Below are positions 26,457-39,675 of a stretch of DNA of 64,000 nt, piece after piece. A program made the translations under genes and the position numbers. The stretch covers positions 128,001-192,000 of the forward strand of contig CBDCWI010000001.1 of the NCBI GenBank assembly GCA_965223325.1, read 5' to 3'. The number at the start of each line of letters is the position of its first letter. The stretch's first letter is position 1. Source of the stretch: Candidatus Multivoradales bacterium. Its GTDB lineage: Bacteria > Acidobacteriota > Thermoanaerobaculia > Multivoradales > Multivoraceae. Under the pieces are notes generated by a model. That model saw only the letters and a program-made list of their open reading frames with translations. It was not told the origin of the DNA and made no database searches.

Positions 26457-27938
26457 ATGAGCCGCAGCCAAGACCCCCTTCTCCCCCCGCTCGCCCTGAC
26501 CTTCGACGACGTCCTCTTGCGTCCCGGCATGTCCGAGATTCATCCGAACGACATCTCGCTCAAAACCCGCATCTGCCGCGGGATCGACCTCAACGTGCCT
26601 ATCGTCTCGGCAGCGATGGACACGGTGACGGAGTCGAGCCTGGCCATTGCCATCGCCCAGGAAGGCGGCATTGGCGTGGTCCACAAGAACCTCTCGGTCG
26701 CCGAACAGGCCGCGCAAGTAGACAAGGTCAAGCGCTCCGAGGCGGGCATGATCGTCGACCCGATCACCATGCGGCCCGACCAGAAGATCCAGGAAGCCCT
26801 CGATCTGATGGCGAACTACAAGATCTCGGGCCTACCTGTAACCGACGACGAGGGGCGCCTCGTCGGCATCCTTACCAACCGCGACCTACGCTTCGAAACC
26901 GAGGTCGACCGCCACGTGCGTGACCTGATGACCTCCGAGAACCTGGTCACGGTTCCAGAGGGCACCACCCTCGAAGAGGCCAAGGCCACCCTCCATCGCC
27001 ATCGCATCGAAAAACTGCTGGTGGTCGACGACGACGGCAACCTCCAGGGACTGATCACGGTCAAAGACATTCAGAAGATGCAGAAGTATCCGAGCGCTTG
27101 CAAAGACGCCCTCGGTCGCTTGCGGGTCGCAGCCGCGGTGGGCGCTTCCGGAGACTTCCTCGAACGCGCAGCGGCGCTGGTCGAGTCGAAGGTCGACATG
27201 TTGGTCCTCGATTCTTCGCACGCCCACAGCCGCGGTGTTCTCGACGCACTCGAAACCCTGCGCGAGGAGTTCCCCGCCGCCAAGCTGATGGTCGGCAACG
27301 TCTCGACCGGTGAGGGCGCCAGGGCGCTCGCGGAGCGTGGCGCAGACGCGGTCAAGGTAGGAATCGGCCCCGGCTCGATTTGCACGACCCGCATCGTGAC
27401 CGGAGCGGGCATGCCACAGATCACCGCCATCAACAGCGTGGCGCGTGAGCTCGAAGATGACAACATCCCCATCTGTGCCGACGGCGGCCTACGCTTTTCA
27501 GGCGATCTCACCAAGGCCCTGGCGGCCGGCGGTCACTCTGTGATGATCGGTTCTCTGCTCGCCGGTACCGAGGAGAGCCCGGGCGAGACCATTCTCTACC
27601 AGGGTCGCACCTACAAGGCCTACCGCGGCATGGGTTCGCTCTCGGCGATGAGCCGCGGCAGCGCCGACCGCTACTTCCAGGAGTCTGAGAACGGGCTCAG
27701 CAAGTTGGTTCCAGAAGGAATCGAAGGCATGGTGCCCTACAAGGGCAGCATGCACCAGATGATTCTCCAGCTCACCGGGGGCCTACGAGCCGGCATGGGA
27801 CTCTCCGGCTGCGCCAGCATCGACGACCTGCGCACCGCCTCCACCCTGGTCCGCGTGACCTCCGCAGGCCACAAAGAGGGCCACGCCCACGACGTCACGA
27901 TCACCAAAGAAGCTCCAAACTACTGGGTCGAGAGCTAG
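26457..27938 (+). CDS. guaB: IMP dehydrogenase
   Basis: [19 protein letters not shown] pair, [17 protein letters not shown] and VPEGIEG. Confidence 0.97.
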
Positions 27939-29337
27939 CGCGCCCCGTGGTGTCCGGCCCCTGGGTAGGCGGGCCTCGTTAGGTTGATCCGGGCTGCGGA
28001 GTCACGACCTTGCGGTGTCGACAAGTCGTTTACCACGGGGCGCGCTAGCCATCACATTGGCCGCTCAAGCGGTCCGCCGCGCGGGCCGCCCTCGAAAGCG
28101 CTCGCCCTGCACCCGCGATCCCAGACTGCGTTGATCCGTCGCGAGCGGCGGATTCGTGGCGTCAGCGCAACCCATTCCCGGAGACCGTGGTGTCCGGCCC
28201 CTGGGTAGGCGGGCCTCGTTAGGTTGATCCGGGCTGCGGAGTCACGACCTTGCGGTGTCGACAAGTCGTTTACCACGGGGCGCGCTAGCCATCACATTGG
28301 CCGCTCAAGCGGTCCGCCGCGCGGGCCGCCCTCGAAAGTGCTCGCCCTGCACCCGCGATCCCAGACTGCGTTGATCCGTCGCGAGCGGCGGATTCGTGGC
28401 GTCAGCGCAACCCATTCCCGGAGACCGTGGTGTCCGGCCCCTGTGTACGCGGGCCTCGTTAGGTTGATCCGGGCTGCGGAGTCACGACCTTGCGGTGTCG
28501 ACAAGTCGTTTACCACGGGGCGCGCTAGCCATCACATTGGCCGCTCAAGCGGTCCGCCGCGCGGGCCGCCCTCGAAAGCGCTCGCTCTGCACCCGCGATC
28601 CCAGACTGCGTTGATCCGTCGCGAGCGGCGGATTCGTGGCGTCAGCGCAACCCATTCCCGGAGACCGTGGTTTTCCGGCCCCTGGGTAGGCGGGCCTCGT
28701 TAGGTTGATCCGGGCTGCGGAGTCACGACCTTGCGGTGTCGACAAGTCGTTTACCACGGGGCGCGCTAGCCATCACATTGGCCGCTCAAGCGGTCCGCCG
28801 CGCGGGCCGCCCTCGAAACGGGGCGCGCTAGCCATCACATTGGCCGCTCAAGCGGTCCGCCGCGCGGGCCGCCCTCGAAAGCGCTCGCTCTGCACCCGCG
28901 ATCCCAGACTGCGTTGATCCGTCGCGAGCGGCGGATTCGTGGCGTCAGCGCAACCCATTCCCGGAGACAAGTCGTTTACCACGGGGCGCGCTAGCCATCA
29001 CATTGGCCGCTCCGCCGCGCGGGCCGCCCTCGAAAGCGCTCGTCTGCACCCGCGATCCCAGACTGCGTTGATCCGTCGCGAGCGGCGGATTCGTGGCGTC
29101 AGCGCAACCCATTCCCGGAGACCGTGGTGTCCGGCCCCTGTGTACGCGGGCCTCGTTAGGTTGATCCGGGCTGCGGAGTCACGACCTTGCGGTGTCGACA
29201 AGTCGTTTACCACGGGGCGCGCTAGCCATCACATTGGCCGCTCAAGCGGTCCGCCGCGCGGGCCGCCCTCGAAAGTGCTCGCCCTGCACCCGCGATCCCA
29301 GACTGCGTTGATCCGTCGCGAGCGGCGGATTCGTGGC
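27934..29337 (+). repeat. Tandem array of about six 240-bp GC-rich palindrome-rich units
   Basis: Unit starts CCGTGGT at 27945, 28185, 28425, 28665 and 29122, plus a 5'-truncated unit near 28966; copies near-identical; no variable spacers. Confidence 0.95.
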
Positions 29338-29455
29338 ACCCCGCCAAGACCCCGCCGACCTCCCCGGCCCCCCGCCCTCAACGAGAACCCCTGTCCGGCA
29401 GAAAGCCGCGTCCGTCGCCCAACGCGGATGGGCCGCTTCAATTGAGTAGCGCGGA

Positions 29456-29623
29456 GTGCACGAGGGCGCCTGGGCAACGGTCCAGGGCTCTCTCGACGGC
29501 CGCTCTGGTAGAGCTCTCGCAGTCGAGAACGACATGCGGCCATCGAGCGAAGGCGGCGCTACCCATGGCAGTCCGAACAAGCGCCGCCGTGCCCAGGACC
29601 GTCGCCCAAGCGTCCTCGTGCAC
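29456..29623. repeat. 168-bp element with 33-bp terminal inverted repeat and internal hairpins (MITE/REP-like or ncRNA)
   Basis: 29456-29488 vs 29591-29623 match as inverted repeats at 29/33 positions; several nested inner inverted repeats. Confidence 0.6.
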
Positions 29624-29762
29624 GTCAATCCCGCCCCAAACCAACCATCATCCACCAGGAGAACAAGAACCTGTACAACCGAGAAAGCGGCAAGGGTAGA
29701 GATCGAGTCCCCCCATCGCGGGCCGACCGATCCGCCGGATCCACACCATCGATCAGCGGCGG

Positions 29763-30386
29763 CTAAGAGTCGCCGTTCTGATGAACACCCCGCACCGCGG
29801 CCACAGTCTGGTCGGCGATCTTGGCGATCGGTGTGTCGAGCTCGAAGGCCTCGAGCCAGAGGTGGGCGCCGTCGGAGGCGCGCACAACCTCGACCAGCAG
29901 CTGCCAACGCTCCTCGCGCTCGAAGACCCGCCCGCTGACGACCGAGTCGGCGCCGAGCTCGCGATGTAGTCGCCGGAGTTCGCGGCTGCGGTCGCCTCCT
30001 GCGGTCACGCGGAACGAACGCGTGGCGGCCGGCCCGAGAACCAGAAGCCGCTGCTGTCCGGCCCGACCCGGCGCACCGAGGCGCGCCACCAGGGCACCGG
30101 CGAAGGAACTCACCTCGCTCTCCTCGAGTGCCTCCCGGAGGGCGAGCAGGTTCTCCTCTCCTCGACCTCCCTGCAAAGCGAACCCATCGAATGGCAGCAC
30201 CGCCACAGTCGGTGTCCGCCGCGGCTCAGGCAGCGGTGCCGCCTCCTCACGCGGGAGCTCCGGCTGCCCTCCTAGCCACAGCACAGTCCCGATCGTGAGG
30301 ACAGCCAGTGCCAGCGACGCCACCGACCAGGTCGCCAGCTGATAGCTACCGGCCGCGCGCCGGCGCCGTCGACTCGTCGTTGTCAC
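29763..30386 (-). CDS. Membrane-anchored protein with TolB-N-like domain
   Basis: TM helix, then VAVLPF, LGADSVVSGRV and VEVVRASDGAHLW; overlaps the peptidase stop by 4 nt. Confidence 0.6.
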   Translation of the reverse strand: MTTTSRRRRRAAGSYQLATWSVASLALAVLTIGTVLWLGGQPELPREEAAPLPEPRRTPTVAVLPFDGFALQGGRGEENLLALREALEESEVSSFAGALVARLGAPGRAGQQRLLVLGPAATRSFRVTAGGDRSRELRRLHRELGADSVVSGRVFEREERWQLLVEVVRASDGAHLWLEAFELDTPIAKIADQTVAAVRGVHQNGDS

Positions 30387-31675
30387 GACGACCGCTTGTA
30401 GGCCCGCGGATCCAGATCGTACGGCAGCGGCGTCAGGTTGCGCACGCCGTCTGCTTCAACCACCAGCAGATCCTCGAGTCGCACCCCGAAGCCGGCCTCG
30501 ACATCGTAGAGCCCAGGTTCGATTGTCACCACGTCACCTTGCTCGAGCGTGTGGTCCGGCGCATCGCCGCCGCGCGACGACCCCCGCAGAGCCGGAAGCT
30601 CATGAAGTTCGAAACCGACACCGTGGCCCAGCGTGTGCACATAGCCGGTTTCGGATCCGGGATCGGAACGCAGTGTCGGCCAACCGCGCTCCTCATAGAG
30701 GTCACAGGTTGCATCCTGCAGTTTCGCACCCGTTACCCCGGGGCGGGCAGCCCCGGTCGCACCTTCGAGAGCCGCCAGCGTGTCGCTCCAGGCACGCGCC
30801 AGTTCTCCTCCTGGCTCCCCGACACAGAAGGTGCGGGTACAGTCTGCGAACAGTCGGCCACGGGGAAAGAGATCGACCACCAGCCCCTCGCCCGTCACCA
30901 GCACACGCTCGTTGGTCCCGGCGTTGTGAGGCACTCCACCCTCCTCGCCCGGAGCCAGGATACTGCCCTCCGATTGGTCGAGCCCGGCGCTACCGAAACA
31001 CTCTGCGACGAGCCCGCGCAGATCGCCGACGCGTAACCGCTCGCCGCCGAGCCAGAGTTCAGCACCCCGACCCCGACTGGCCGGCTCGGCATCGGCCAGC
31101 GCACCGGCTATCGCACGAAAGGCCCGGCACACGACTCCTGCCACCCGCTCGATCTCGGCGATCTCGTGCGCCGACTTCACCTTGCGTACCCGCCGCATGA
31201 GGTCGTGTCCCGAAACCAGTCGATAGCCAGCGCTTTCCAGCTCGCGCGCCGCTTCGACCATGTTGCCCAGCGCCTCGTGCCCGGCGAGAGCGACCACACC
31301 GGGCTCGATCTCGCCATTGAGGAGCGCCTTGCCGAGCACCCACGCCAGAGCAGCGCCCGGGCCATCGCTCTCACGCTGCGCCTTGGCGACTTCGAGGCGC
31401 GCCGGGTCGATCACTTCGAGGCCGGTCGCTTCGGCCTCGCCCCGGTCGAGTGACGAGAAGAAGGCCAGGCGCGGGGCATCCCCGGGTCGCGCGACGACTG
31501 CTAACTGACCAATACGGACCTCGCCCAGAAACGGCGCGGCATCTGGATCACGCGCGTTGTGTCCCACCACCAGAAGCCCCGAGGCGCCAAGCGCCTCGAG
31601 CTCATGAGCCAGGCGATCTTGCCTCGCCTCTTCTCGCGGCGAGCTTCCGGCTCCCCGACCGCTCACCTCGCGCAA
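30383..31675 (-). CDS. M24 family (Xaa-Pro) peptidase
   Basis: RKVKSAHEI, VPH, VDLFP, ADCTRTF, HTLGHGVGFELHE, TIEPGLY and GVRLED. Confidence 0.92.
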   Translation of the reverse strand: MREVSGRGAGSSPREEARQDRLAHELEALGASGLLVVGHNARDPDAAPFLGEVRIGQLAVVARPGDAPRLAFFSSLDRGEAEATGLEVIDPARLEVAKAQRESDGPGAALAWVLGKALLNGEIEPGVVALAGHEALGNMVEAARELESAGYRLVSGHDLMRRVRKVKSAHEIAEIERVAGVVCRAFRAIAGALADAEPASRGRGAELWLGGERLRVGDLRGLVAECFGSAGLDQSEGSILAPGEEGGVPHNAGTNERVLVTGEGLVVDLFPRGRLFADCTRTFCVGEPGGELARAWSDTLAALEGATGAARPGVTGAKLQDATCDLYEERGWPTLRSDPGSETGYVHTLGHGVGFELHELPALRGSSRGGDAPDHTLEQGDVVTIEPGLYDVEAGFGVRLEDLLVVEADGVRNLTPLPYDLDPRAYKRSS

Positions 31676-31683
31676 CCGGTCAT

Positions 31684-32037
31684 TCAGGTCACAGCATTCT
31701 GGGCAGACTGCAGACCCTCGGCGACAAAGTTCTCGATCTGCGGACGTGGCAGGGCGCCCATGGTGCGTGCGGCGACCTCACCGTTCTTGAACAGGATCAG
31801 GGTGGGAATGCTCTGTACGCCGTACTGGGCTGCGGTTTCACGTGCGGCATCGACATCGACCTTGACGATCTTGAGGTTTCCGGCATGATCACCCGCCATC
31901 TCCTCGAGAACCGGCGCGATCTGGCGACAGGGGCCGCACCACGTCGCCCAGAAGTCGACCAGGACAGGTTGCTCGGACTGGACGACTTCGCTCTCGAAGT
32001 TGTCGTTGTTGACATCGATGATGTTTTCGCTGGCCAT
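31684..32037 (-). CDS. trxA: Thioredoxin
   Basis: VDFWATWCGPC and SIPTL. Confidence 0.95.
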   Translation of the reverse strand: MASENIIDVNNDNFESEVVQSEQPVLVDFWATWCGPCRQIAPVLEEMAGDHAGNLKIVKVDVDAARETAAQYGVQSIPTLILFKNGEVAARTMGALPRPQIENFVAEGLQSAQNAVT

Positions 32038-32126
32038 CGAGTGGGCCTCCGTAGTCTCCGCCGTGGCGGGTTGGGTTGAACTGTTGAAAGGTCAGGTTTG
32101 CCGCGCAGCTCGTCGGGTGACTCTAT

Positions 32127-32186
32127 CGTCGGGATCTGGCGTCGGGATCTGGCGTCGGGATCTGGCGCCGGGATCTGGCGCCGGGA
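32127..32186. repeat. 13-bp tandem repeat (GGGATCTGGCGYC) x4 just after the ribF stop
   Basis: Units at 32131, 32144, 32157 and 32170, partial unit at 32183. Confidence 0.85.
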
Positions 32187-32189
32187 GGT

Positions 32190-33152
32190 TCAGTGACTGG
32201 GCAGTTCTTCCAAACGCGGTATCCCGCGCAGAAATTCCCGAGCGATTTCGACGTCCTTCCCGATCTGAGCCGACAGATCCATGGTGGAGCTGAACATCTT
32301 CTCGTCGCGCAGCCGCTTCCAGAAACGGACCTCGACTGCCTCTCCGTATACGTCGCTCTGGAAATCGAGGATGTGACTTTCGCAAACGCGCTGAAAATTC
32401 TCGTAGACCGTGGGCCTGGTTCCGATATTGGTCACCGCATCGAAGACCGCGGGGAACGACGGAAAGAAAACCCTGGTGGCATACACCCCGTCGAGCGGCA
32501 GGAAGTCGCTATCAGGCGCCAGGTTGATGGTTGGCCAACCGAGTTTCTGGCCCATGCGATCACCACGGGCAACCAACCCGGTGACTGAATAGGGTCGGCC
32601 CAGGAGCTCGTGCGCTTCGTAGACCTTCCCCTCCGCCAGCAGCCGGCGAATGCGAGTGCTCGAGACCCGTTCGACGCCGCGGCGCACCTCGTCGACGGTG
32701 AACGCCTCGAAGCCGAAGCTCTTGCCCATCTGCTGGAGCAGGGAAACGTCGCCCTCACGCCGATGGCCGAAGCTGAAGTCGGAACCGACATAGACCTCTT
32801 TGACCTCGAGTCGTTCGTGCAAGAAGTCGCGCACGAACGAGCGCGCGGGGGTCTGGGCGAACTCGGGCGTGAACTGCACGACCAGAACGGCGTCAATACC
32901 GGTTGCGTCGAGCAATGCATCGCGCTGCGAAGGCGTAGCAAGGCGCGCCGGCGCGGCCTCGGGCCGCAGGACCGAAAGGGGGTGCGGGTCGAAAGTAATC
33001 ACCGCAGAAGGACAGTCGAGATCGCGAGCGCGCGCCACGACCAGCTCGAGGACCGCGCGCTGGCCGAGATGAATGCCGTCATAGTTCCCGATCGTGACCA
33101 CCGCACCTTGCGGAAGGTCGGTGGCTGAGAGTGCATCTTGAATGACTTGCAT
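32190..33152 (-). CDS. ribF: Bifunctional riboflavin kinase/FAD synthetase
   Basis: GNYDGIHLGQ, TFDPHP, VSSTRIR, LGWPTIN, NIGTRPT and ESHILDF. Confidence 0.95.
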   Translation of the reverse strand: MQVIQDALSATDLPQGAVVTIGNYDGIHLGQRAVLELVVARARDLDCPSAVITFDPHPLSVLRPEAAPARLATPSQRDALLDATGIDAVLVVQFTPEFAQTPARSFVRDFLHERLEVKEVYVGSDFSFGHRREGDVSLLQQMGKSFGFEAFTVDEVRRGVERVSSTRIRRLLAEGKVYEAHELLGRPYSVTGLVARGDRMGQKLGWPTINLAPDSDFLPLDGVYATRVFFPSFPAVFDAVTNIGTRPTVYENFQRVCESHILDFQSDVYGEAVEVRFWKRLRDEKMFSSTMDLSAQIGKDVEIAREFLRGIPRLEELPSH

Positions 33153-33157
33153 GGCGA

Positions 33158-34681
33158 TTAGACGGTCAGCTCCCGAGAAGCGGGACTCGGATCGTGCCCG
33201 GCAGCCATCTCGCTCGCCGTCACGACGTCCGGCCGACCGCGCGGCCCAACGATACGCCCGACCAGGTCATCGGCATGGGCCTCGGTCACCTCGACCTCGA
33301 CCAGGCTCGGCGCCGCCGCACAGCCGTCGACGATCAGCACCCGACCATCGATGCCGGGCGCCATCCCTTGATGCCGGGCTTCGAGAAGCAGATCACTCTC
33401 GGAACTCTGACCCTCGAGTAGCATCTCGAGAGTCTTACCGACCAGGCGCTGGCGGCGTTCGAGCGAAATCGGCCGTTGCACTTCGAGCAGATGCTGGAGA
33501 CGGCGTTCCGCCTCTTCGCCATCCACCGCAGCCTCGAACGTGGCCGCAGGGGTGTCCTCTTCGGGACTGAAGGCAAACGCTCCCAGGTGATCGAAGCGCG
33601 CTCTACAGATGAACTCTTCGAGATGTCTGAGGTGTTCGAGGGTCTCCCCCGGGAAACCGACGATGAACGTCGTGCGCAAGAAGACATCTGGCACAAGCTG
33701 CCGCGTGCGTTCGAGAAGGCGCAGGTAGCGCGCCGCGCTCCCTCCGCGCCGCATGCTGGTGAGCATCTCGGGATGGCTGTGTTGGAGGGGCATATCGAGG
33801 TACGAGACGAAGCGCTCTTCGCCACCCATGAGAGCAAGAAGCTCCTCGTCCAAGGTCGTTGGGTAGGCGTACATGAAACGGATCCAGGGGATCGTAGTCT
33901 CCGCCAACAGCGCCTCGACGAGACGCACCAGGCCGTAGCGACCGAGGCCGAGATCCTCTCCGTAGCGCGTCGTATCCTGCGCCAGCAACACGATCTCGCT
34001 AAAACCCTCGGCCTCGAGCCGCTTCGCCTCGGCAACAAGGCTCTTGATCGTGCGACTGCGAAAGCGGCCTCGCCAGACAGGGATGGCGCAGAACGTACAC
34101 GGGTTGTTGCACCCCTCTGCGACCTTCAGGTAGGCGAAACCGCGGGTGGTGACCAGGCGCGGCGCGGTGTGATCGAAGACGCGCTCCGCCCGGTGCGGGG
34201 CAAGCGGCAGGCTACTGCCAAGGCGCACCAGCCCAGAGACATCCTGCAGCTGGTCAAGGCCGATGAAACCATCGATCTCCGGAATCTCGGCGGCGAGCTC
34301 CTCGGCGTAGCGACTCGCCATGCAGCCCGACACCAAAAGGCGCTTCGGACCTCCGGCCTCGGTCTTTTGCTCGGCCACCTCGAGAATCGCCTCGATGGAC
34401 TCCTCGCGGGCCTCCCCGATGAAACCGCATGTGTTAACGATCACCACCTCGGCCTCGTGCACGTCGATCACGACATCGTGGCCCTGCCCTTCAAGTTCTC
34501 CGAGCATGATCTCGGCGTCTACGAGGTTCTTGGGACAACCCAGGCTGATCATTCCGACCCGCGGGGGCTTGCCCGTGTGATCAGGCGACAGCGCCGCCAC
34601 ACCGGGCTTTGGAAGCACAGAGGAACCCTGCGGCCGGGGCGCGAAGGCTCGCCGCTCTTGCCCTGAAACACCCTTGGACAT
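33158..34681 (-). CDS. rimO: Ribosomal protein S12 methylthiotransferase
   Basis: SLGCPKNLVD, NTCGFI, AEGCNNPCTFCAIP and APGIDG TRAM region. Confidence 0.93.
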   Translation of the reverse strand: MSKGVSGQERRAFAPRPQGSSVLPKPGVAALSPDHTGKPPRVGMISLGCPKNLVDAEIMLGELEGQGHDVVIDVHEAEVVIVNTCGFIGEAREESIEAILEVAEQKTEAGGPKRLLVSGCMASRYAEELAAEIPEIDGFIGLDQLQDVSGLVRLGSSLPLAPHRAERVFDHTAPRLVTTRGFAYLKVAEGCNNPCTFCAIPVWRGRFRSRTIKSLVAEAKRLEAEGFSEIVLLAQDTTRYGEDLGLGRYGLVRLVEALLAETTIPWIRFMYAYPTTLDEELLALMGGEERFVSYLDMPLQHSHPEMLTSMRRGGSAARYLRLLERTRQLVPDVFLRTTFIVGFPGETLEHLRHLEEFICRARFDHLGAFAFSPEEDTPAATFEAAVDGEEAERRLQHLLEVQRPISLERRQRLVGKTLEMLLEGQSSESDLLLEARHQGMAPGIDGRVLIVDGCAAAPSLVEVEVTEAHADDLVGRIVGPRGRPDVVTASEMAAGHDPSPASRELTV

Positions 34682-34755
34682 TGGGCGAATCGTAGCAGCA
34701 GAGGCCCTCGGCACACCGACTCCACCCCTGAACCGGCAATGAATTCCGAGAAAAC

Positions 34756-34784
34756 TTGAATTTATCGCCATTCATCGATATACT
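34756..34784 (+). promoter_or_regulatory. Putative sigma70 promoter for the PilZ-like gene
   Basis: TTGAAT-N17-TATACT in an AT-rich patch. Confidence 0.5.
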
Positions 34785-34850
34785 GGTTTCGCACTGTTGC
34801 CAGGGTACATCGCAACCCCAACAGCAGCCTCCCGATCACGGATCCTGGTC

Positions 34851-35561
34851 ATGCCGAAACCACCACCATTCTCGACAGAAATCCCCATCGACCGCTCACC
34901 AACCGTCGAGGACCCCGGCCTCTCCGGAGACCTGGCCTTCGTCACTCTGGCGGCGGTTGTCGATGTCGGACTCGGCGGTCTCGGACTGCAAACTGAAGAG
35001 GCCCTCCGCGTCGGCCACTCCTACACCGTCGACCTCGAGTCGTCCAACCTCGAGCTGACCGGCAAAACGGTATGGAACCGTCAGGTCGGTACCTTCCGCC
35101 AGAACAACGGTCGCATCGTGCCCCGCTACCGGGCCGGTCTGGCGTTCGAGAGCGAAACCATCACGGCCCACCAGGAAGCGTTGCAGGAGTACCTGATTCT
35201 CAACGCCGTCTCCGAAACCGCCTCGCGACGCCCCTCACCGCGCTACCACCTGCGCTCGGACACTCCGCGGGTACTCCACACCCGCTACCCGTTCACGGTC
35301 GACTCGATCAGTGTGTCCGGAATGATCGTCAAGGTCGACCAGCTCCCCACCCCCGATGCAGTCCTTCACCTGCGTCTCGGCCTCTCCGACAGCGAACAGC
35401 TCGACCTCACCGCCCGCCTCAGCGACGTCTACCAGACCTACGACAACGACAGGATCGACACCCGTGTCGCCCTCGAGTTCGTCAACCTCTACGCCGGCAC
35501 CCGCGAAACCCTGGGTAACTGGGTCCGCGAACGACGTTCACTCACCCCCCTCATCCAGTAG
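34851..35561 (+). CDS. Tandem PilZ-like domain protein
   Basis: DVGLGGL...AGLAF first domain; RRPSPRY...SISVSGM...ALEF second domain; start uncertain. Confidence 0.7.
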   Translation: MPKPPPFSTEIPIDRSPTVEDPGLSGDLAFVTLAAVVDVGLGGLGLQTEEALRVGHSYTVDLESSNLELTGKTVWNRQVGTFRQNNGRIVPRYRAGLAFESETITAHQEALQEYLILNAVSETASRRPSPRYHLRSDTPRVLHTRYPFTVDSISVSGMIVKVDQLPTPDAVLHLRLGLSDSEQLDLTARLSDVYQTYDNDRIDTRVALEFVNLYAGTRETLGNWVRERRSLTPLIQ

Positions 35562-35890
35562 CTCCAGCAACCGAACCACACCCACCCTCCCGGCCAAAGG
35601 CCCCGCTGCCGCGTTTCCTCTTTCCCGACAGCAACCCGACCGAACAGCTCACCCGCACCACCGCGCGGCCAAGATGATCTGAGATCTGAGATCTGAGGCG
35701 TGGAACACCACCCCACGAAAGTTCAACGGCGCGACTCCCAGTACCGCTCTACAGAAAAAGGAAGCGCGTGCCTGCGGCCACCACGCCTCAGATCAACACT
35801 CCGGAGGCGCACGACAAGCGAACCGAAGTCCTCCGCCGCACCTGCAGGGCCACCCACCAACCGCCAACGGCAACCGCAACGGACCGCTTG

Positions 35891-37800
35891 GATACGCCGG
35901 GATAAACCGGCATGGAGAAAGGAATGAGAGAGTCCCACCCTCGAAGGGGTAGCGACCCAGAGGGTCCCCGAGTCATGCGCCGGCTCCCGCGAGGGTGCGG
36001 TGAAGCGTTGACAGGGGCACACACAGGCCGGGTATTGAGCCGCGAAATAAGAATTTGGGAGTGCCGACGCTGTCAAGCGAAGCGGAAGGCGAGACTCCGT
36101 AGCGCGCTATCGCGAGCTCTGCGGCGACTCCCCGCGGTCGTAGACCCTGTGCATGTGTGGAATCTCCATGCGCGAGAACCGGGAGATCCGCGATCTGGCC
36201 AGTTGGGTATCTGGTCCGCATCGGGAAGGCTAGAGGCCGTAAGCCGATGACGCACGGATGGCGGAAGTCAGACAGGCCCGTAGTACCTGCGAAGTCGTCG
36301 AACAACGGTGGGAGACCAGCGGCGGAGGCGGTGGAGGGAAGGGGCCTGGCCAAGGGGAACACGGGCAAGCAAAACGCACCCCGGACACAGAGCCGGATGG
36401 AGAGTGCGAGCAATGCGCTGGGCCGTGTACGAGAAGCCGCCCGCAGGGGCAAGGAAGTGAAGTTCACAGCGCTTCTTCACCACATCACGGTCGAGCGACT
36501 CCGGAGCGCATTTGACGTGTTGCACCGAGACGCAGCGGCAGGAGTGGACGGAGTGTCATGGAGCGAGTACGCAGAATCTTTGCTGAGCAATCTCGAGGAC
36601 CTGCACTCTCGTGTCCACCGTGGGAGCTACCGGGCGAGTGCGACTCGTCGCGTCTACATCGAGAAATCGGATGGGCGGTTCCGACCGCTTGGCATCGCCA
36701 CGTTGGAGGACAAGATCCTTCAGCGCGCCGTCGTCTCGGTGTTGGATGCGATCTACGAGGAAGACTTTCTCGGGTACTCATACGGATTCAGGCGAGGCCG
36801 CAGCCAGCACGATGCTTTGGATGCGCTATTCGTTGGAATCACAAAGCGGAAGGTGAACTGGGTGCTCGACGCAGACATTCGTGGGTTCTTCGATGCCCTG
36901 GACCACGAGTGGCTGGTGAAGTTTCTCGAGCACCGTATCGGAGACCGTAGGATCCTTCGCCTCATCCAGAAATGGCTGAGGTCCGGAGTGATGGAAGACG
37001 GTAAGTGGCACGCGAGCACGCGGGGGACTCCTCAGGGGGCGACGATTTCGCCTCTCCTCGGGAACGTGTACCTGCACTACGTGCTCGATCTCTGGGTCCA
37101 GCAGTGGAGGAAACGCAACGCGCTTGGGGACATGATCTTCGTGCGCTACGCGGATGACTTCATCGTTGGATTTGAGAGGCAGGAGGAGGCAGAACGATTC
37201 CTCGAGGAACTGAACCTGCGACTCCGTGACTTCTCGTTGGAGATCCAACCCGAGAAGACGCGCCTGCTGGAGTTTGGCCGCTTTGCGGCCTACAACCGAC
37301 GCGCGCGAGGTCTCGGGCGGCCGGAGACCTTCGAGTTTCTAGGCTTTACGCACTGCTGTGCGCAGTCTAGTCGAGGGAGGTTCTTGCTGAAGCGCATCAC
37401 GAGCCGCCACCGAATCCGCAGGACACTGAAGGCTGTCGGTACGGCCCTTCTGGGACACCGACACTCGCCGCTACCAGAGCAAGGTCTCTGGCTGGGATCC
37501 GTGGTGCGAGGCTTCAATGCCTACTACGGCGTACCCGGCAACTCAGCGGCGTTGAACGCCTTTCGACAGGAGGTCATTCGGCACTGGATGCGCGCTCTGC
37601 GCCGACGCAGTGACAAAGACCGCACGTCCTGGAAACGGATGTGGGCCCTGGTGGCCCACTACCTACCCAAAGCCCGAGTCCAACATCCCTGGCCTGATGA
37701 GCGACTTGTCGTCAATACCTGAGGCAGGAGCCCAGTGCATTAGCAGTGCACGCTGGGATCTGTGCGGGGGGCGCCGGGCAACCGGCGCTCCTACCGCGAT
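35891..37800 (+). mobile_element. Group II intron (probably bacterial class E), 1910 nt
   Basis: Removal restores the repeat GGACCGCTTG|CGCCGGACC exactly with no target duplication; D5 GGAGCCCAGTGC...GCACGCTGGGATCT and D6 ending CTACCGCGAT; EBS1-like loop CAAGCG at 36074-36079; class assignment from recalled motifs. Confidence 0.92.
36247..37722 (+). CDS. ltrA: Group II intron reverse transcriptase/maturase without endonuclease domain
   Basis: FTALLHH, RRVYIEK, RPLGI, SYGFR, DADIRGFFD, GTPQG, RYADD and FEFLGF; ends after domain X; start uncertain. Confidence 0.93.
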   Translation: MTHGWRKSDRPVVPAKSSNNGGRPAAEAVEGRGLAKGNTGKQNAPRTQSRMESASNALGRVREAARRGKEVKFTALLHHITVERLRSAFDVLHRDAAAGVDGVSWSEYAESLLSNLEDLHSRVHRGSYRASATRRVYIEKSDGRFRPLGIATLEDKILQRAVVSVLDAIYEEDFLGYSYGFRRGRSQHDALDALFVGITKRKVNWVLDADIRGFFDALDHEWLVKFLEHRIGDRRILRLIQKWLRSGVMEDGKWHASTRGTPQGATISPLLGNVYLHYVLDLWVQQWRKRNALGDMIFVRYADDFIVGFERQEEAERFLEELNLRLRDFSLEIQPEKTRLLEFGRFAAYNRRARGLGRPETFEFLGFTHCCAQSSRGRFLLKRITSRHRIRRTLKAVGTALLGHRHSPLPEQGLWLGSVVRGFNAYYGVPGNSAALNAFRQEVIRHWMRALRRRSDKDRTSWKRMWALVAHYLPKARVQHPWPDERLVVNT

Positions 37801-38364
37801 CGCCGGACCAGGATGATCGTGATCTGAGGCGTGGTACACGACCCAGCGAAAGCTCAACGGCGCCACTCCCAGTACCGCTCTACAAGAAAAGGAAGCGCGT
37901 GCCTGCGGCCACCACGCTTCAGATCAACACTCCGGAGGCGCGCGACAAGCGAACCGAAGTCCTCCGCCGCACCTGCAGGGCCACCCACCAACCGCCAACG
38001 GCAACCGCAACGGACCGCTTGCGCCGGACCAGGATGATCGTGATCTGAGGCGTGGTACACGACCCAGCGAAAGCTCAACGGCGCGACTCCCAGTACCGCT
38101 CTACAAGAAAAGGAAGCGCGTGCCTGCGGCCACCACGCTTCAGATCAACACTCCGGAGGCGCGCGACAAGCGAACCGAAGTCCTCCGCCGCACCTGCAGG
38201 GCCACCCACCAACCGCCAACGGCAACCGCAACGGACCGCTTGCGCCGGACCAGGATGATCGTGATCTGAGGCGTGGTACACGACCCCACGAAAGTCAACG
38301 GCGCCACTCCCAGTACCGCTCTACAAGAAAAGGAAGCGCGTGCCTGCGGCCACCACGCCTCAGA

Positions 38365-39675
38365 TCACGGATAGATCTTGTAGAGCATCCGGGGGTAGGG
38401 AATCGTTTCGCGGAGATGGGGAACACCACTCATCCAGGCGACGAACCGTTCGAGGCCCATGCCGAAGCCACTGTGCGGAAAGCTTCCGTACTTGCGCACA
38501 TCGAGGTACCACTGGAAGGCCTCGATCGGGAGTTCGTGTTCGTGAATTCGTTCGAGCAACAGGTCGTGGTCGTGGATGCGCTGGCTGCCGCCGATGATCT
38601 CACCGTAGCCCTCGGGGGCAAGAACATCGAGCGCCAGCGCGGTCTCGGGGCGTTCGCCGTCGGGCTGCATATAGAAGGCTTTGGTTTTCGCCGGGTAGTG
38701 AGTGATCATCACCGGCCGATCGAAACGTGAGGCGAGCAGCGTTTCGTCTTCGGCCCCGAAGTCGTCGCCCCACTCGAGCGACTTGCCCGCTTCAGCAAGC
38801 ACCGCGACCGCCTCGTCGTAGGTCATGCGCGGAAACGGCCCGGCCACTGCCTCGAGCTTGGCAATGTCCCGATCGAGAACGTCGAGCGGGCCTCGGCAGC
38901 GCTCTAGAACCCTACCGACGACCGAGACCAGGAAGTCCTCGGCAAGCTCACAGAGGCCATCGAACTCGAGAAAGGCGACCTCAGGCTCCACCATCCAGAA
39001 TTCAGTGAGATGGCGGCGCGTCTTCGATTTCTCGGCGCGAAAGGTCGGGCCGAAGCAGTAGACCTTGCCGAGTGCAGCGGCTGCAGGCTCCAGGTACAGC
39101 TGGCCCGACTGGCTCAAAAACGCAGGATCGCCAAAGTAGTCGGTCTCGAACAACGTCGAGGTACCTTCGCAGGCAGCCGGCGTCAGAATCGGCGAGTCGA
39201 TGAGGCTGAAGCCACGATCGTAGAAGAAGTCACGGATGGCGTGCACCGCTTCACTCCGAATCTGGAGGACCGCACGCTGTTTACTCGATCGCAACCAGAG
39301 GTGGCGATTGGCCATCAAGAACGCCGTGCCGTGTTCCTTCGGCGTGATCGGGTACTCGTCGGCCAGCGACACGACCCCGATCGAGTGCGCCTTCAGCTCG
39401 ACGCCCGTTGGCGAGCGCTTGTCGGCCGCAACCTCGCCGATGCAACGGATCGTCGACTCCTGGGTGGCCTCTTCCAGAGCGTTCCATGTCTCTTCACTGA
39501 CGTCGCCGCGACTCACCACGACCTGGACGACTTCACTCCCGTCGCGGAGCTGGATGAAACCGATCTTGCCGCTCGAACGTTTGTTGGCGATCCAGCCGGA
39601 AAGTTCGACTGTCTCGCCCACCAACTCGGGCAGGTCACGGACCCATACGCGTTCTGTCTTTTCCTCTCCACTCAT
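38365..39675 (-). CDS. asnS: Asparagine--tRNA ligase
   Basis: LRDGS OB fold, [32 protein letters not shown] and [10 protein letters not shown]. Confidence 0.95.

Follow-up and report, generated by a model that had tools for sequence, protein, structure and literature searches.

A compact group II intron occupying a fixed position in a structured non-coding repeat family of an acidobacterial genome

The window analysed here is the whole 64,000-nt stretch at positions 128,001 to 192,000 of contig CBDCWI010000001.1 from a Candidatus Multivoradales bacterium, and all window coordinates refer to it. It contains two arrays of a structured non-coding repeat, the second of which is interrupted in its first unit by a group II intron that encodes a reverse transcriptase (RT)/maturase. 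We consider it very likely that this intron, a compact IIB-type element without an endonuclease domain that is apparently active, spreads by retrohoming into one fixed position of the repeat, a family restricted to this lineage. The intron, its parts and the two arrays are located as follows, where EBS and IBS denote exon-binding and intron-binding sites.

27939-29337, minus strand: array 1, with seven core hits, a period of about 240 nt and six empty copies of the 11-mer target
35670-35890, plus strand: 5′ exon, the first, split unit of array 2 (hairpin module, then core up to the insertion site)
35891-37800, plus strand: group II intron, 1910 nt, 5′ end GAUACG and 3′ end ...CCGCGAU, boundaries taken from the empty sites
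35929-36147, plus strand: domain I core, Rfam RF02005 (group-II-D1D4-6), 180.6 bits, E 9e-53, gathering score 49
36045-36056, plus strand: internal loop AAAUAAGAAUUU, at the EBS2 position of the related intron L120
36063-36090, plus strand: EBS1 hairpin, loop 36072-36080, EBS1 CAAGCG at 36074-36079, from the RF02005 alignment
36247-37722, plus strand: RT/maturase gene, 491 amino acids, YADD encoded at 37147-37158 (residues 301-304)
37728-37760, plus strand: domain V, AGC triad, 2-nt bulge, non-GNRA terminal loop, from an alignment with seven relatives and a fold
37762-37797, plus strand: domain VI, bulged A at 37793, lying 7 nt upstream of the 3′ splice site, from a fold
37801-38367, plus strand: 3′ exon with the rest of array 2 (2.6 units), and empty sites at 38021|38022 and 38242|38243

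The boundaries of the intron are fixed by the two empty copies of its target in the same array. The filled site reads ...CGGACCGCTTG (35880-35890)|GATACG...CCGCGAT (37800)|CGCCGG (37801-), and the empty sites read CGGACCGCTTG|CGCCGG at 38011-38021|38022 and 38232-38242|38243. Because this boundary tolerates no single-base shift against the empty sites, the intron occupies exactly 35891-37800, with IBS1 as CGCUUG at 35885-35890 and the first base of the 3′ exon, C37801, as the presumed IBS3. An earlier reading of the sequence alone (the sequence-only reading) had let the intron split a unit exactly at CGGACCGCTTG|C within a span of 35880-37810; the empty sites bear out the split point, and an intron does lie in that span, but the end at 37810 runs 10 nt into the 3′ exon. 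The surrounding sequence is that of an ordinary array, where the 200 nt 5′ of the intron and the next unit agree at 190 positions, without any difference over the final 80 nt, and Tandem Repeats Finder reports a 221-nt period across 37801-38367 with 2.6 copies at 98%. Further, the exact 11-mer CGGACCGCTTG occurs nine times in the window, three times on the plus strand and six times on the minus strand in array 1, and all six minus-strand copies that had been listed (28066, 28306, 28546, 28787, 28849 and 29243) were found exactly. When up to one mismatch is allowed, the window contains 14 occurrences, as compared to a mean of 3.44 in shuffled sequences, and none of 100 shuffles reached 14.

The RF02005 alignment pairs positions 36063-36090 as GCC-GA-CGCU[GUCAAGCGA]AGCG-GAA-GGC, leaving a 9-nt loop, GUCAAGCGA, in which CAAGCG (36074-36079) is fully complementary to CGCUUG (35885-35890) through six Watson-Crick pairs. 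A single-sequence minimum free energy (MFE) fold pairs CGCU with the first AGCG instead; the Rfam hairpin is preferred over it because the EBS1 loop covaries with the exon across relatives. In particular, the CAAGCG/CGCUUG pairing of this intron becomes UAAGCG with CGCUUA in the introns of gammaproteobacterial metagenome-assembled genomes (MAGs) and Pseudomonas putida, UAACCG with CGGUUA in the L025 intron, UAAGCU with GGCUUA in the L028 intron, CCAGGU with ACUUGG or AUCUGG in Solirubrobacterales introns, and ACUGU with ACAGU in a Klebsiella plasmid intron. These are five differing combinations of loop and exon among relatives, whose intron junctions were placed from the EBS1 pairing, and the pairing is preserved in every one. 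The complementarity between CAAGCG and the last six exon bases, noted in the sequence-only reading, is that of the EBS1 loop with its exon. For EBS2, the related Sinorhizobium meliloti intron L120 offers a guide, as a 13-nt internal loop just 5′ of its EBS1 hairpin carries CGAAC, complementary to exon GUUCG at -12 to -8. Three other segments of the present intron were considered as EBS2 and rejected: GUCC at 35933-35936 is conserved across the Rfam family and is therefore not a variable guide, GGUCCG at 36213-36218 lies beyond domain I and stays invariant while the exons of relatives change, and AAUUUG at the 3′ edge of the internal loop would form just four pairs, two of them wobble.

RF02005 is the best match, where any overlapping matches from related families of its clan are collapsed to the top entry. 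The intron-encoded protein (IEP) matches TIGR04416, group_II_RT_mat, with 342.6 bits (cut-off 300) and RVT_1 with 133.9 bits (E 8e-39), and its 491 residues contain no endonuclease domain according to Pfam. The domain V triad pairs G with A; since this pairing and the non-GNRA domain V loop are common to close relatives, they are traits of the lineage. Without its open reading frame (ORF), the ribozyme measures 434 nt. A regular expression for the class D C-terminal motif LX3AX3PXLF[V/A]HW found no match in the 491-residue IEP, whose C-terminus reads ...HYLPKARVQHPWPDERLVVNT. In place of class C (IIC) traits, the intron has a 6-bp EBS1, RF02005 as its best Rfam family, and a long hairpin downstream of the insertion site. 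In a comparison that covered ribozyme size and the domain V loop, the 434 nt and the long non-GNRA loop would fit IIE/IIF introns. The intron is described here as a compact IIB-type element without an endonuclease domain, and no letter class is assigned to it.

The genome of 6.69 Mb, in two contigs (C1 and C2), contains 14 full-length copies of the intron, 12 of which have the top BLAST score and are identical while two score slightly lower. All 14 carry open RT frames, and no other RVT_1 match occurs in the genome. Further intron pieces found by BLAST are a 3′ fragment of 240 nt (97% identity) and a scrap of 36 nt. Thirteen of the 14 full copies sit at the same position of the repeat family model, 89|90, and the first 3′ exon base is C in every copy. 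The 240-nt fragment is a 5′-truncated relic (C2:4242250-4242489) that is followed by a family 3′ exon, with an unrelated 5′ side that lacks the 5′ half of the unit; it is consistent with an older abortive or partly deleted insertion. Insertion into the repeat family, which the sequence-only reading proposed as homing, is the pattern across the genome, and the concern raised there that other copies might lie in unrelated sequence applies to one copy in 14. A one-off insertion is ruled out by the same numbers. The remaining copy (C2:2349730-2351639, minus strand) lies in the sense direction in a GNAT (Acetyltransf_3) gene, exactly at a codon boundary, and its site has in common with the family sites only ...GAGCGCTTG|C. 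The GNAT gene would be broken if the intron there failed to splice. Within arrays, the occupied unit is the first in five cases, the last in four and internal in two; one copy occupies a lone unit, and one follows a diverged 5′ half. In the DNA contigs of the sequencing runs, the same intron is joined only to the flanks of this genome's other copies. A 2135-nt joint in X1 was considered as an empty allele and rejected, as it has a 30-nt side and looks like a repeat collapse. As a separate observation, cumulative GC skew declines over the whole of C1 and turns at about C2:0.34 Mb and C2:3.5 Mb, which suggests that C1 and C2 belong to a single chromosome, C1 being in the inverted orientation, and are not two replicons.

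Iterated nhmmer searches with a core of 129 nt collected 174 core hits in 60 loci for the target family, and the intron is absent from 47 of these loci. Most loci are tandem arrays of two to seven units with locus-specific periods of 130 to 360 nt. In a unit of about 240 nt, a leader of some 25 nt (GTTCCATCGAAGCCAGGAA) is followed by the core and then by a long hairpin that ends about 80 nt past the core. Whole-unit single-sequence MFE folds disagreed between loci, and covariation was relied on instead, using an alignment of 38 representatives from 49 fetched (11 were excluded for core insertions or short hairpins). In helix P1, GCGGCGCGCG at columns 40-49 is paired to CGC-UU-GCGCCG..C at columns 123-140, and in the long hairpin columns 156-167 are paired to 268-279; both helices covary, with both-side changes at 14 of 22 predicted pairs. 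The insertion point of the intron, between alignment columns 128 and 129, interrupts the 3′ strand of P1, and IBS1 therefore belongs to this helix. On the unit strand, 53 distinct hairpins have 27 G-U pairs versus 7 A-C mismatches (p 0.0008), an excess suggesting that the strand with the intron in sense is the folding strand; the same count for P1 is 4 to 4. The outer stem bases of the terminal hairpin are locus-specific. The target had been described as the most conserved motif of the family, which is correct to the extent that its block is one of three highly conserved core blocks, but by information content the 11-mer comes 12th among 116 windows, below GTGGTAACGAC and TCCGCGGCGCG.

Rfam 15 searched at E≤1 across 27500-38600 gave no match but the intron. 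Sigma-70-like promoters within units number zero in array 1, and array 2 has none. There are zero terminator-like sites on either strand of 27800-29600, and no T run follows the hairpins. No sign of an origin as a miniature inverted-repeat transposable element or insertion sequence (IS) was seen by eye, as the left ends of 50 loci have a conserved leader without a repeat of the right end. No paper describing the family was found, though no literature search was aimed at it. Array 1 is irregular in two respects, with an exact 62-nt internal duplication that provides an extra intron target and a shortened 154-nt period (28756-28880 and 28818-29122).

The family is narrowly distributed. BLAST against 40 relatives, including the same-genus genome G001, found no family copy, and the covariance model R1 matched two of 60 other genomes, with 13 short versions in G005 and two partial hairpin matches in G009. 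G005 belongs to another genus of the same family; in its short unit of about 155 nt (loci L109, L112, L115, L117 and L119), a simple hairpin takes the place of P1 and the same CTAG...CGTGGTA hairpin is present, the stem being near-identical in four alignments. An exact-pattern scan of 185,579 species genomes produced three isolated hits that were taken as chance, for which R1 gave 9.8 bits over the site, 6.2 bits off the site and no match. Within the present genome, the long form of the family and the intron burst co-occur. The unconstrained part of the core is near-random between loci while the intron copies are identical, and the family is therefore far older than the burst.

The restriction of the intron to this family is strong. 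There are 1797 empty CGCTTG|C sites genome-wide, 116 in the family and 1681 outside it, as compared to occupied sites at a ratio of 13 to 1 (odds ratio 188, Fisher p 9e-15). Lengthening the word narrows the gap: the family holds 19.5% of CCGCTTG|C sites but all 12 of the occupied ones (P 3e-9), 72% of GACCGCTTG|C sites and all 11 occupied (P 0.03), and 91% of GGACCGCTTG|C sites, again with all 11 occupied, which is not significant. Recognition of about ten upstream bases together with C+1 would thus suffice for the restriction. About one in ten family sites is occupied (13 of 129), which lies within the 2-100% site occupancy tabulated for enterobacterial introns (PMC3522654). Specificity beyond EBS1 and IBS3 is real, and its source could be upstream bases such as GGAC, the protein, DNA or RNA structure, or selection.

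Overall, the following mechanism is proposed. The excised intron RNA, together with its RT, would reverse-splice into DNA at CGGACCGCTTG|C and would then be copied into DNA; as the protein has no endonuclease domain, the cDNA would probably be primed by replication-fork primers. The arrays stand mostly tail-to-tail against the stop codon of a neighbouring gene, and an insertion there breaks no protein gene. With its many near-identical sites, the family serves as a multi-copy harbour of which roughly one tenth is occupied. The 14 near-identical copies and the single 5′-truncated copy point to mobility. The phrase multi-copy safe harbour, used in the sequence-only reading, is supported as a description, and the restriction may come from targeting or from the survival of harmless insertions.

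Several results weigh against retrohoming of this kind. The internal loop AAAUAAGAAUUU (36045-36056) cannot pair with the GC-rich exon and no convincing alternative EBS2 was found; a fitting EBS2 is not supported, and the 188-fold enrichment is left unexplained by the known pairings. The motif GGAC is about equally frequent at occupied and empty family sites (11 of 13 versus 81 of 116, p 0.35), and the data therefore do not distinguish sequence recognition from an effect of structure, transcription or selection; part of the pattern could arise if insertions in genes are selected against. No replication strand bias is seen, with eight copies co-directional and six opposed (p 0.79; origin at about C2:3.5 Mb and terminus at about C2:0.34 Mb, from GC skew only), while endonuclease-less class D introns are reported to have a bias for insertion on the lagging-strand template (PMC4615759). 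The 5′ end of the intron is GAUACG instead of the usual GUGYG, where the 5′ ends of relatives are GUACG, GAGCG, GUAGCG or GUGCG. The generic domain V-VI model RF00029 found no match on the intron, even at E≤1. Finally, mapping of one polyA RNA run (X24) gave zero reads.

The rival that survives best, although we think it unlikely, holds that the intron inserts at any CGCTTG|C and that most genic insertions are lost, leaving those in a dispensable repeat and one spliceable sense insertion. It is helped by the missing EBS2-IBS2 pairing, by GGAC being no commoner at occupied than at empty family sites, and by the sole outside copy lying in the sense strand of the GNAT gene, where splicing would rescue the gene. 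Four observations oppose it. The copies are identical or near-identical, indicating a recent burst with little time for purging; a large share of the 1681 outside sites is expected to be intergenic or on a sense strand, yet only one is used; CCGCTTG|C sites are occupied 12 of 12 times inside the family against its 19.5% share; and the relatives are likewise bound to one sequence, the terminal repeat of IS66. A more elaborate scenario, in which the repeat is a structured RNA gene family expressed from the strand of the intron, its terminal hairpin pairs with the convergent stop region, the intron is a genuine intron of these RNA genes whose splicing rebuilds P1, and the RT helped to spread or amplify the units, is given a small probability, somewhat below that of differential survival.

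Co-amplification, in which the RT of the intron reverse-transcribed unit RNA and so built or spread the arrays as one system, appears very improbable. The 14 IEP genes are the sole RVT_1 matches in the genome, the long-form family and the burst occur together here, and no copy of the family was found in G001, a genome of the same genus, all of which would agree with a single system. However, the 47 intron-free loci speak against it, as do periods that include locus-specific linkers and vary from 130 to 360 nt, as expected of local tandem duplication; moreover, positions between loci are saturated while the introns are identical, making the family much older, and a short version exists in another genus, G005. 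The suggestion in the sequence-only reading that the RT could amplify the arrays is not supported, given the linkers and the intron-free loci. Recombination at the DNA level, by a single entry followed by gene conversion or unequal crossing-over between units without retrohoming, is scarcely credible: the units are repeats that could recombine and neighbours within an array are near-identical, but from locus to locus the 13 copies have strongly different flanks while all 13 junctions are base-exact, no conversion tracts of identical flank were seen beyond the intron, one copy lies outside the family with only IBS1 in common, and the 5′-truncated copy fits abortive reverse transcription.

The nearest relatives are likewise tied to one sequence, and their sites suggest a connection between the present target and IS66. 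IEPs 59-62% identical occur in MAGs of Gammaproteobacteria (about 61-62%) and Solirubrobacterales, and plasmid relatives are found in P. putida (L122, 59%), Klebsiella (56%, at least 3705 records) and S. meliloti (42-50%). Five of five loci examined with Rfam (L017, L021, L120, L121 and L122) match RF02005. The P. putida plasmid locus (L122/L123) adjoins IS66 tnpA, tnpB and a transposase gene, and L022, L025 and L026 have HTH_Tnp_1 and TnpB_IS66 immediately upstream; the introns at these loci lie directly outside the IS66 genes and antisense to them, with an insertion point that separates G from T in the GTAAGCG at the end of the IS66 inverted repeats. The published terminal repeat of IS66, GTAAGCGTCCGGCGAACTCACCTT (PMC12888890), gives their 5′ exon ...AAGGTGAGTTCGCCGGACGCTTA|C when reverse-complemented. 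L020 and L022 have their 5′ flank in common and differ in their 3′ flank, as is expected of insertion at the outer end of an IS. Compared with the IS66-end word GGACGCTTA|C, the word GGACCGCTTG|C has an additional C and ends in G, not A, and EBS1 reads C in this intron where the relatives have U. A search for PF03050 found zero IS66 transposase matches in this genome, and R1 found nothing in the flanks of the relatives' introns, which places none of them in the repeat family; degenerate pieces of related introns, present in G001 and elsewhere among the relatives, also have flanks that are not family-like. With the nearest relatives on IS66 repeats and no IS66 transposase found here, these comparisons suggest a target switch, in which a lineage from the terminal inverted repeats of IS66 probably moved to a look-alike host repeat. 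In a Solirubrobacterales MAG (L021, L024 and L027), three copies of a related intron interrupt diverged paralogous frames ending in ...WLP(E/A)DHL|, and these frames resemble a transposase N-terminus by eye.

The homing of endonuclease-less introns into multi-copy elements is documented for RmInt1 in ISRm2011-2, for RmInt2 in the inverted repeats of ISRm17, and for Sr.md.I1, which sits in an IS66 transposase ORF (PMC4615759). Like these introns of Sinorhizobium (PMC4615759, PMC4075523), the present one lacks an endonuclease domain, has a base-paired target and is present in many copies within a multi-copy element, and RmInt2 uses the terminal inverted repeats of an IS, as the nearest relatives here do with IS66. 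In contrast to the RmInt1 group, the target is a structured non-coding repeat of the host and not an IS, and the intron has no class D motif, no EBS2-IBS2 pairing that was seen, and no strand bias (8 to 6). The multi-copy S. meliloti intron L120 was considered as RmInt1 and set aside, as it matches RF02005 but has no class D motif. The introns of P. putida (L122), the gammaproteobacterial MAGs and Klebsiella agree in their RF02005 match (183-189 bits), domain V/VI features, homologous EBS1 hairpin and nearly the same target, ...GGACGCTTA|C; they differ in that several lie at the outer ends of IS66 repeats, EBS1 reads UAAGCG, the introns begin GUACG, GAGCG or GUGCG, and none is in the repeat family.

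Class C introns use terminators and attC sites (PMC4424553, PMC7923331) and resemble this intron in choosing non-coding, structured, multi-copy DNA near gene ends, often antisense to the neighbour. However, they have an EBS1 of 3-4 bp and need an upstream hairpin, whereas the present intron has a 6-bp EBS1 and a domain I of IIB type (RF02005), and its insertion point lies 14-17 nt 5′ of the unit's long hairpin, within another helix. IIE/IIF introns are comparable in compactness (434 nt without the ORF here, as against 450-700 nt quoted), in a domain V loop of more than four bases, and in a hairpin that follows the EBS1 hairpin (Nagy et al. 2013, PMC3753933). The same source lists α′ in the terminal loop of DId3 among the IIE/IIF traits, describes EBS2-IBS2 as dispensable for self-splicing in these classes, and reports IIE introns as hydrolytic in vitro, while this intron has a bulged A in domain VI. 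For group II introns in extragenic or other host repeats, the only literature found was a table row for P. putida KT2440, ‘Group II intron 2/9’, associated with repetitive extragenic palindromes (REPs) (PMC1525189).

The intron is therefore a clear case of a known habit with an unusual target. What is particular is the nature of that target, the strong restriction to one family without EBS2 pairing, and a connection to IS66 ends that can be traced. The IS66 repeats occupied by the nearest relatives carry almost the same word, and the EBS1 of these relatives differs by one base, giving an example of a probable target switch that can be followed. The 188-fold restriction without a visible EBS2 poses a testable question on how endonuclease-less introns choose their sites. 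With about 170 copies, two covarying helices, and a hairpin over the neighbour's stop codon in most loci, the target repeat may deserve more attention than the intron itself.

This last property is seen at both arrays of the window, whose neighbouring genes are as follows.

26457-27938, plus strand: IMP dehydrogenase gene, with its TAG stop inside the terminal hairpin of array 1
34797-35561, plus strand: PilZ-domain gene, upstream of array 2 on the strand of the intron, with one promoter-like site at 34756-34784
38365-39675, minus strand: class II aminoacyl-tRNA synthetase gene, whose TGA stop (38365-38367) supplies the final bases of array 2's terminal hairpin

Across the genome, 41 of the 49 loci in which a hairpin was found have a convergent ORF (at least 80 codons, GC content at third codon positions (GC3) above 0.72) that stops within -14 to +15 nt of the 3′ end of the terminal hairpin, and in 31 of those 41 the stop codon coincides exactly with the final three bases of the hairpin stem. 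The stops at hairpins are TAG in 33 cases, TGA in six and TAA in two; TAG ends 39% of 2190 long ORFs genome-wide, and its excess at the hairpins is significant (p 1e-7). The opposite strand of the stem opens with the same stop triplet. We know of no mechanism that places a repeat on stop codons. A sense transcript of the intron could possibly be supplied from the PilZ gene, as the sequence-only reading suggested; the gene lies on the same strand and has the one promoter-like site. Between arrays 1 and 2, the window also contains a 13-nt tandem repeat, CGTCGGGATCTGG, with 4.6 copies at 97% (32127-32186).

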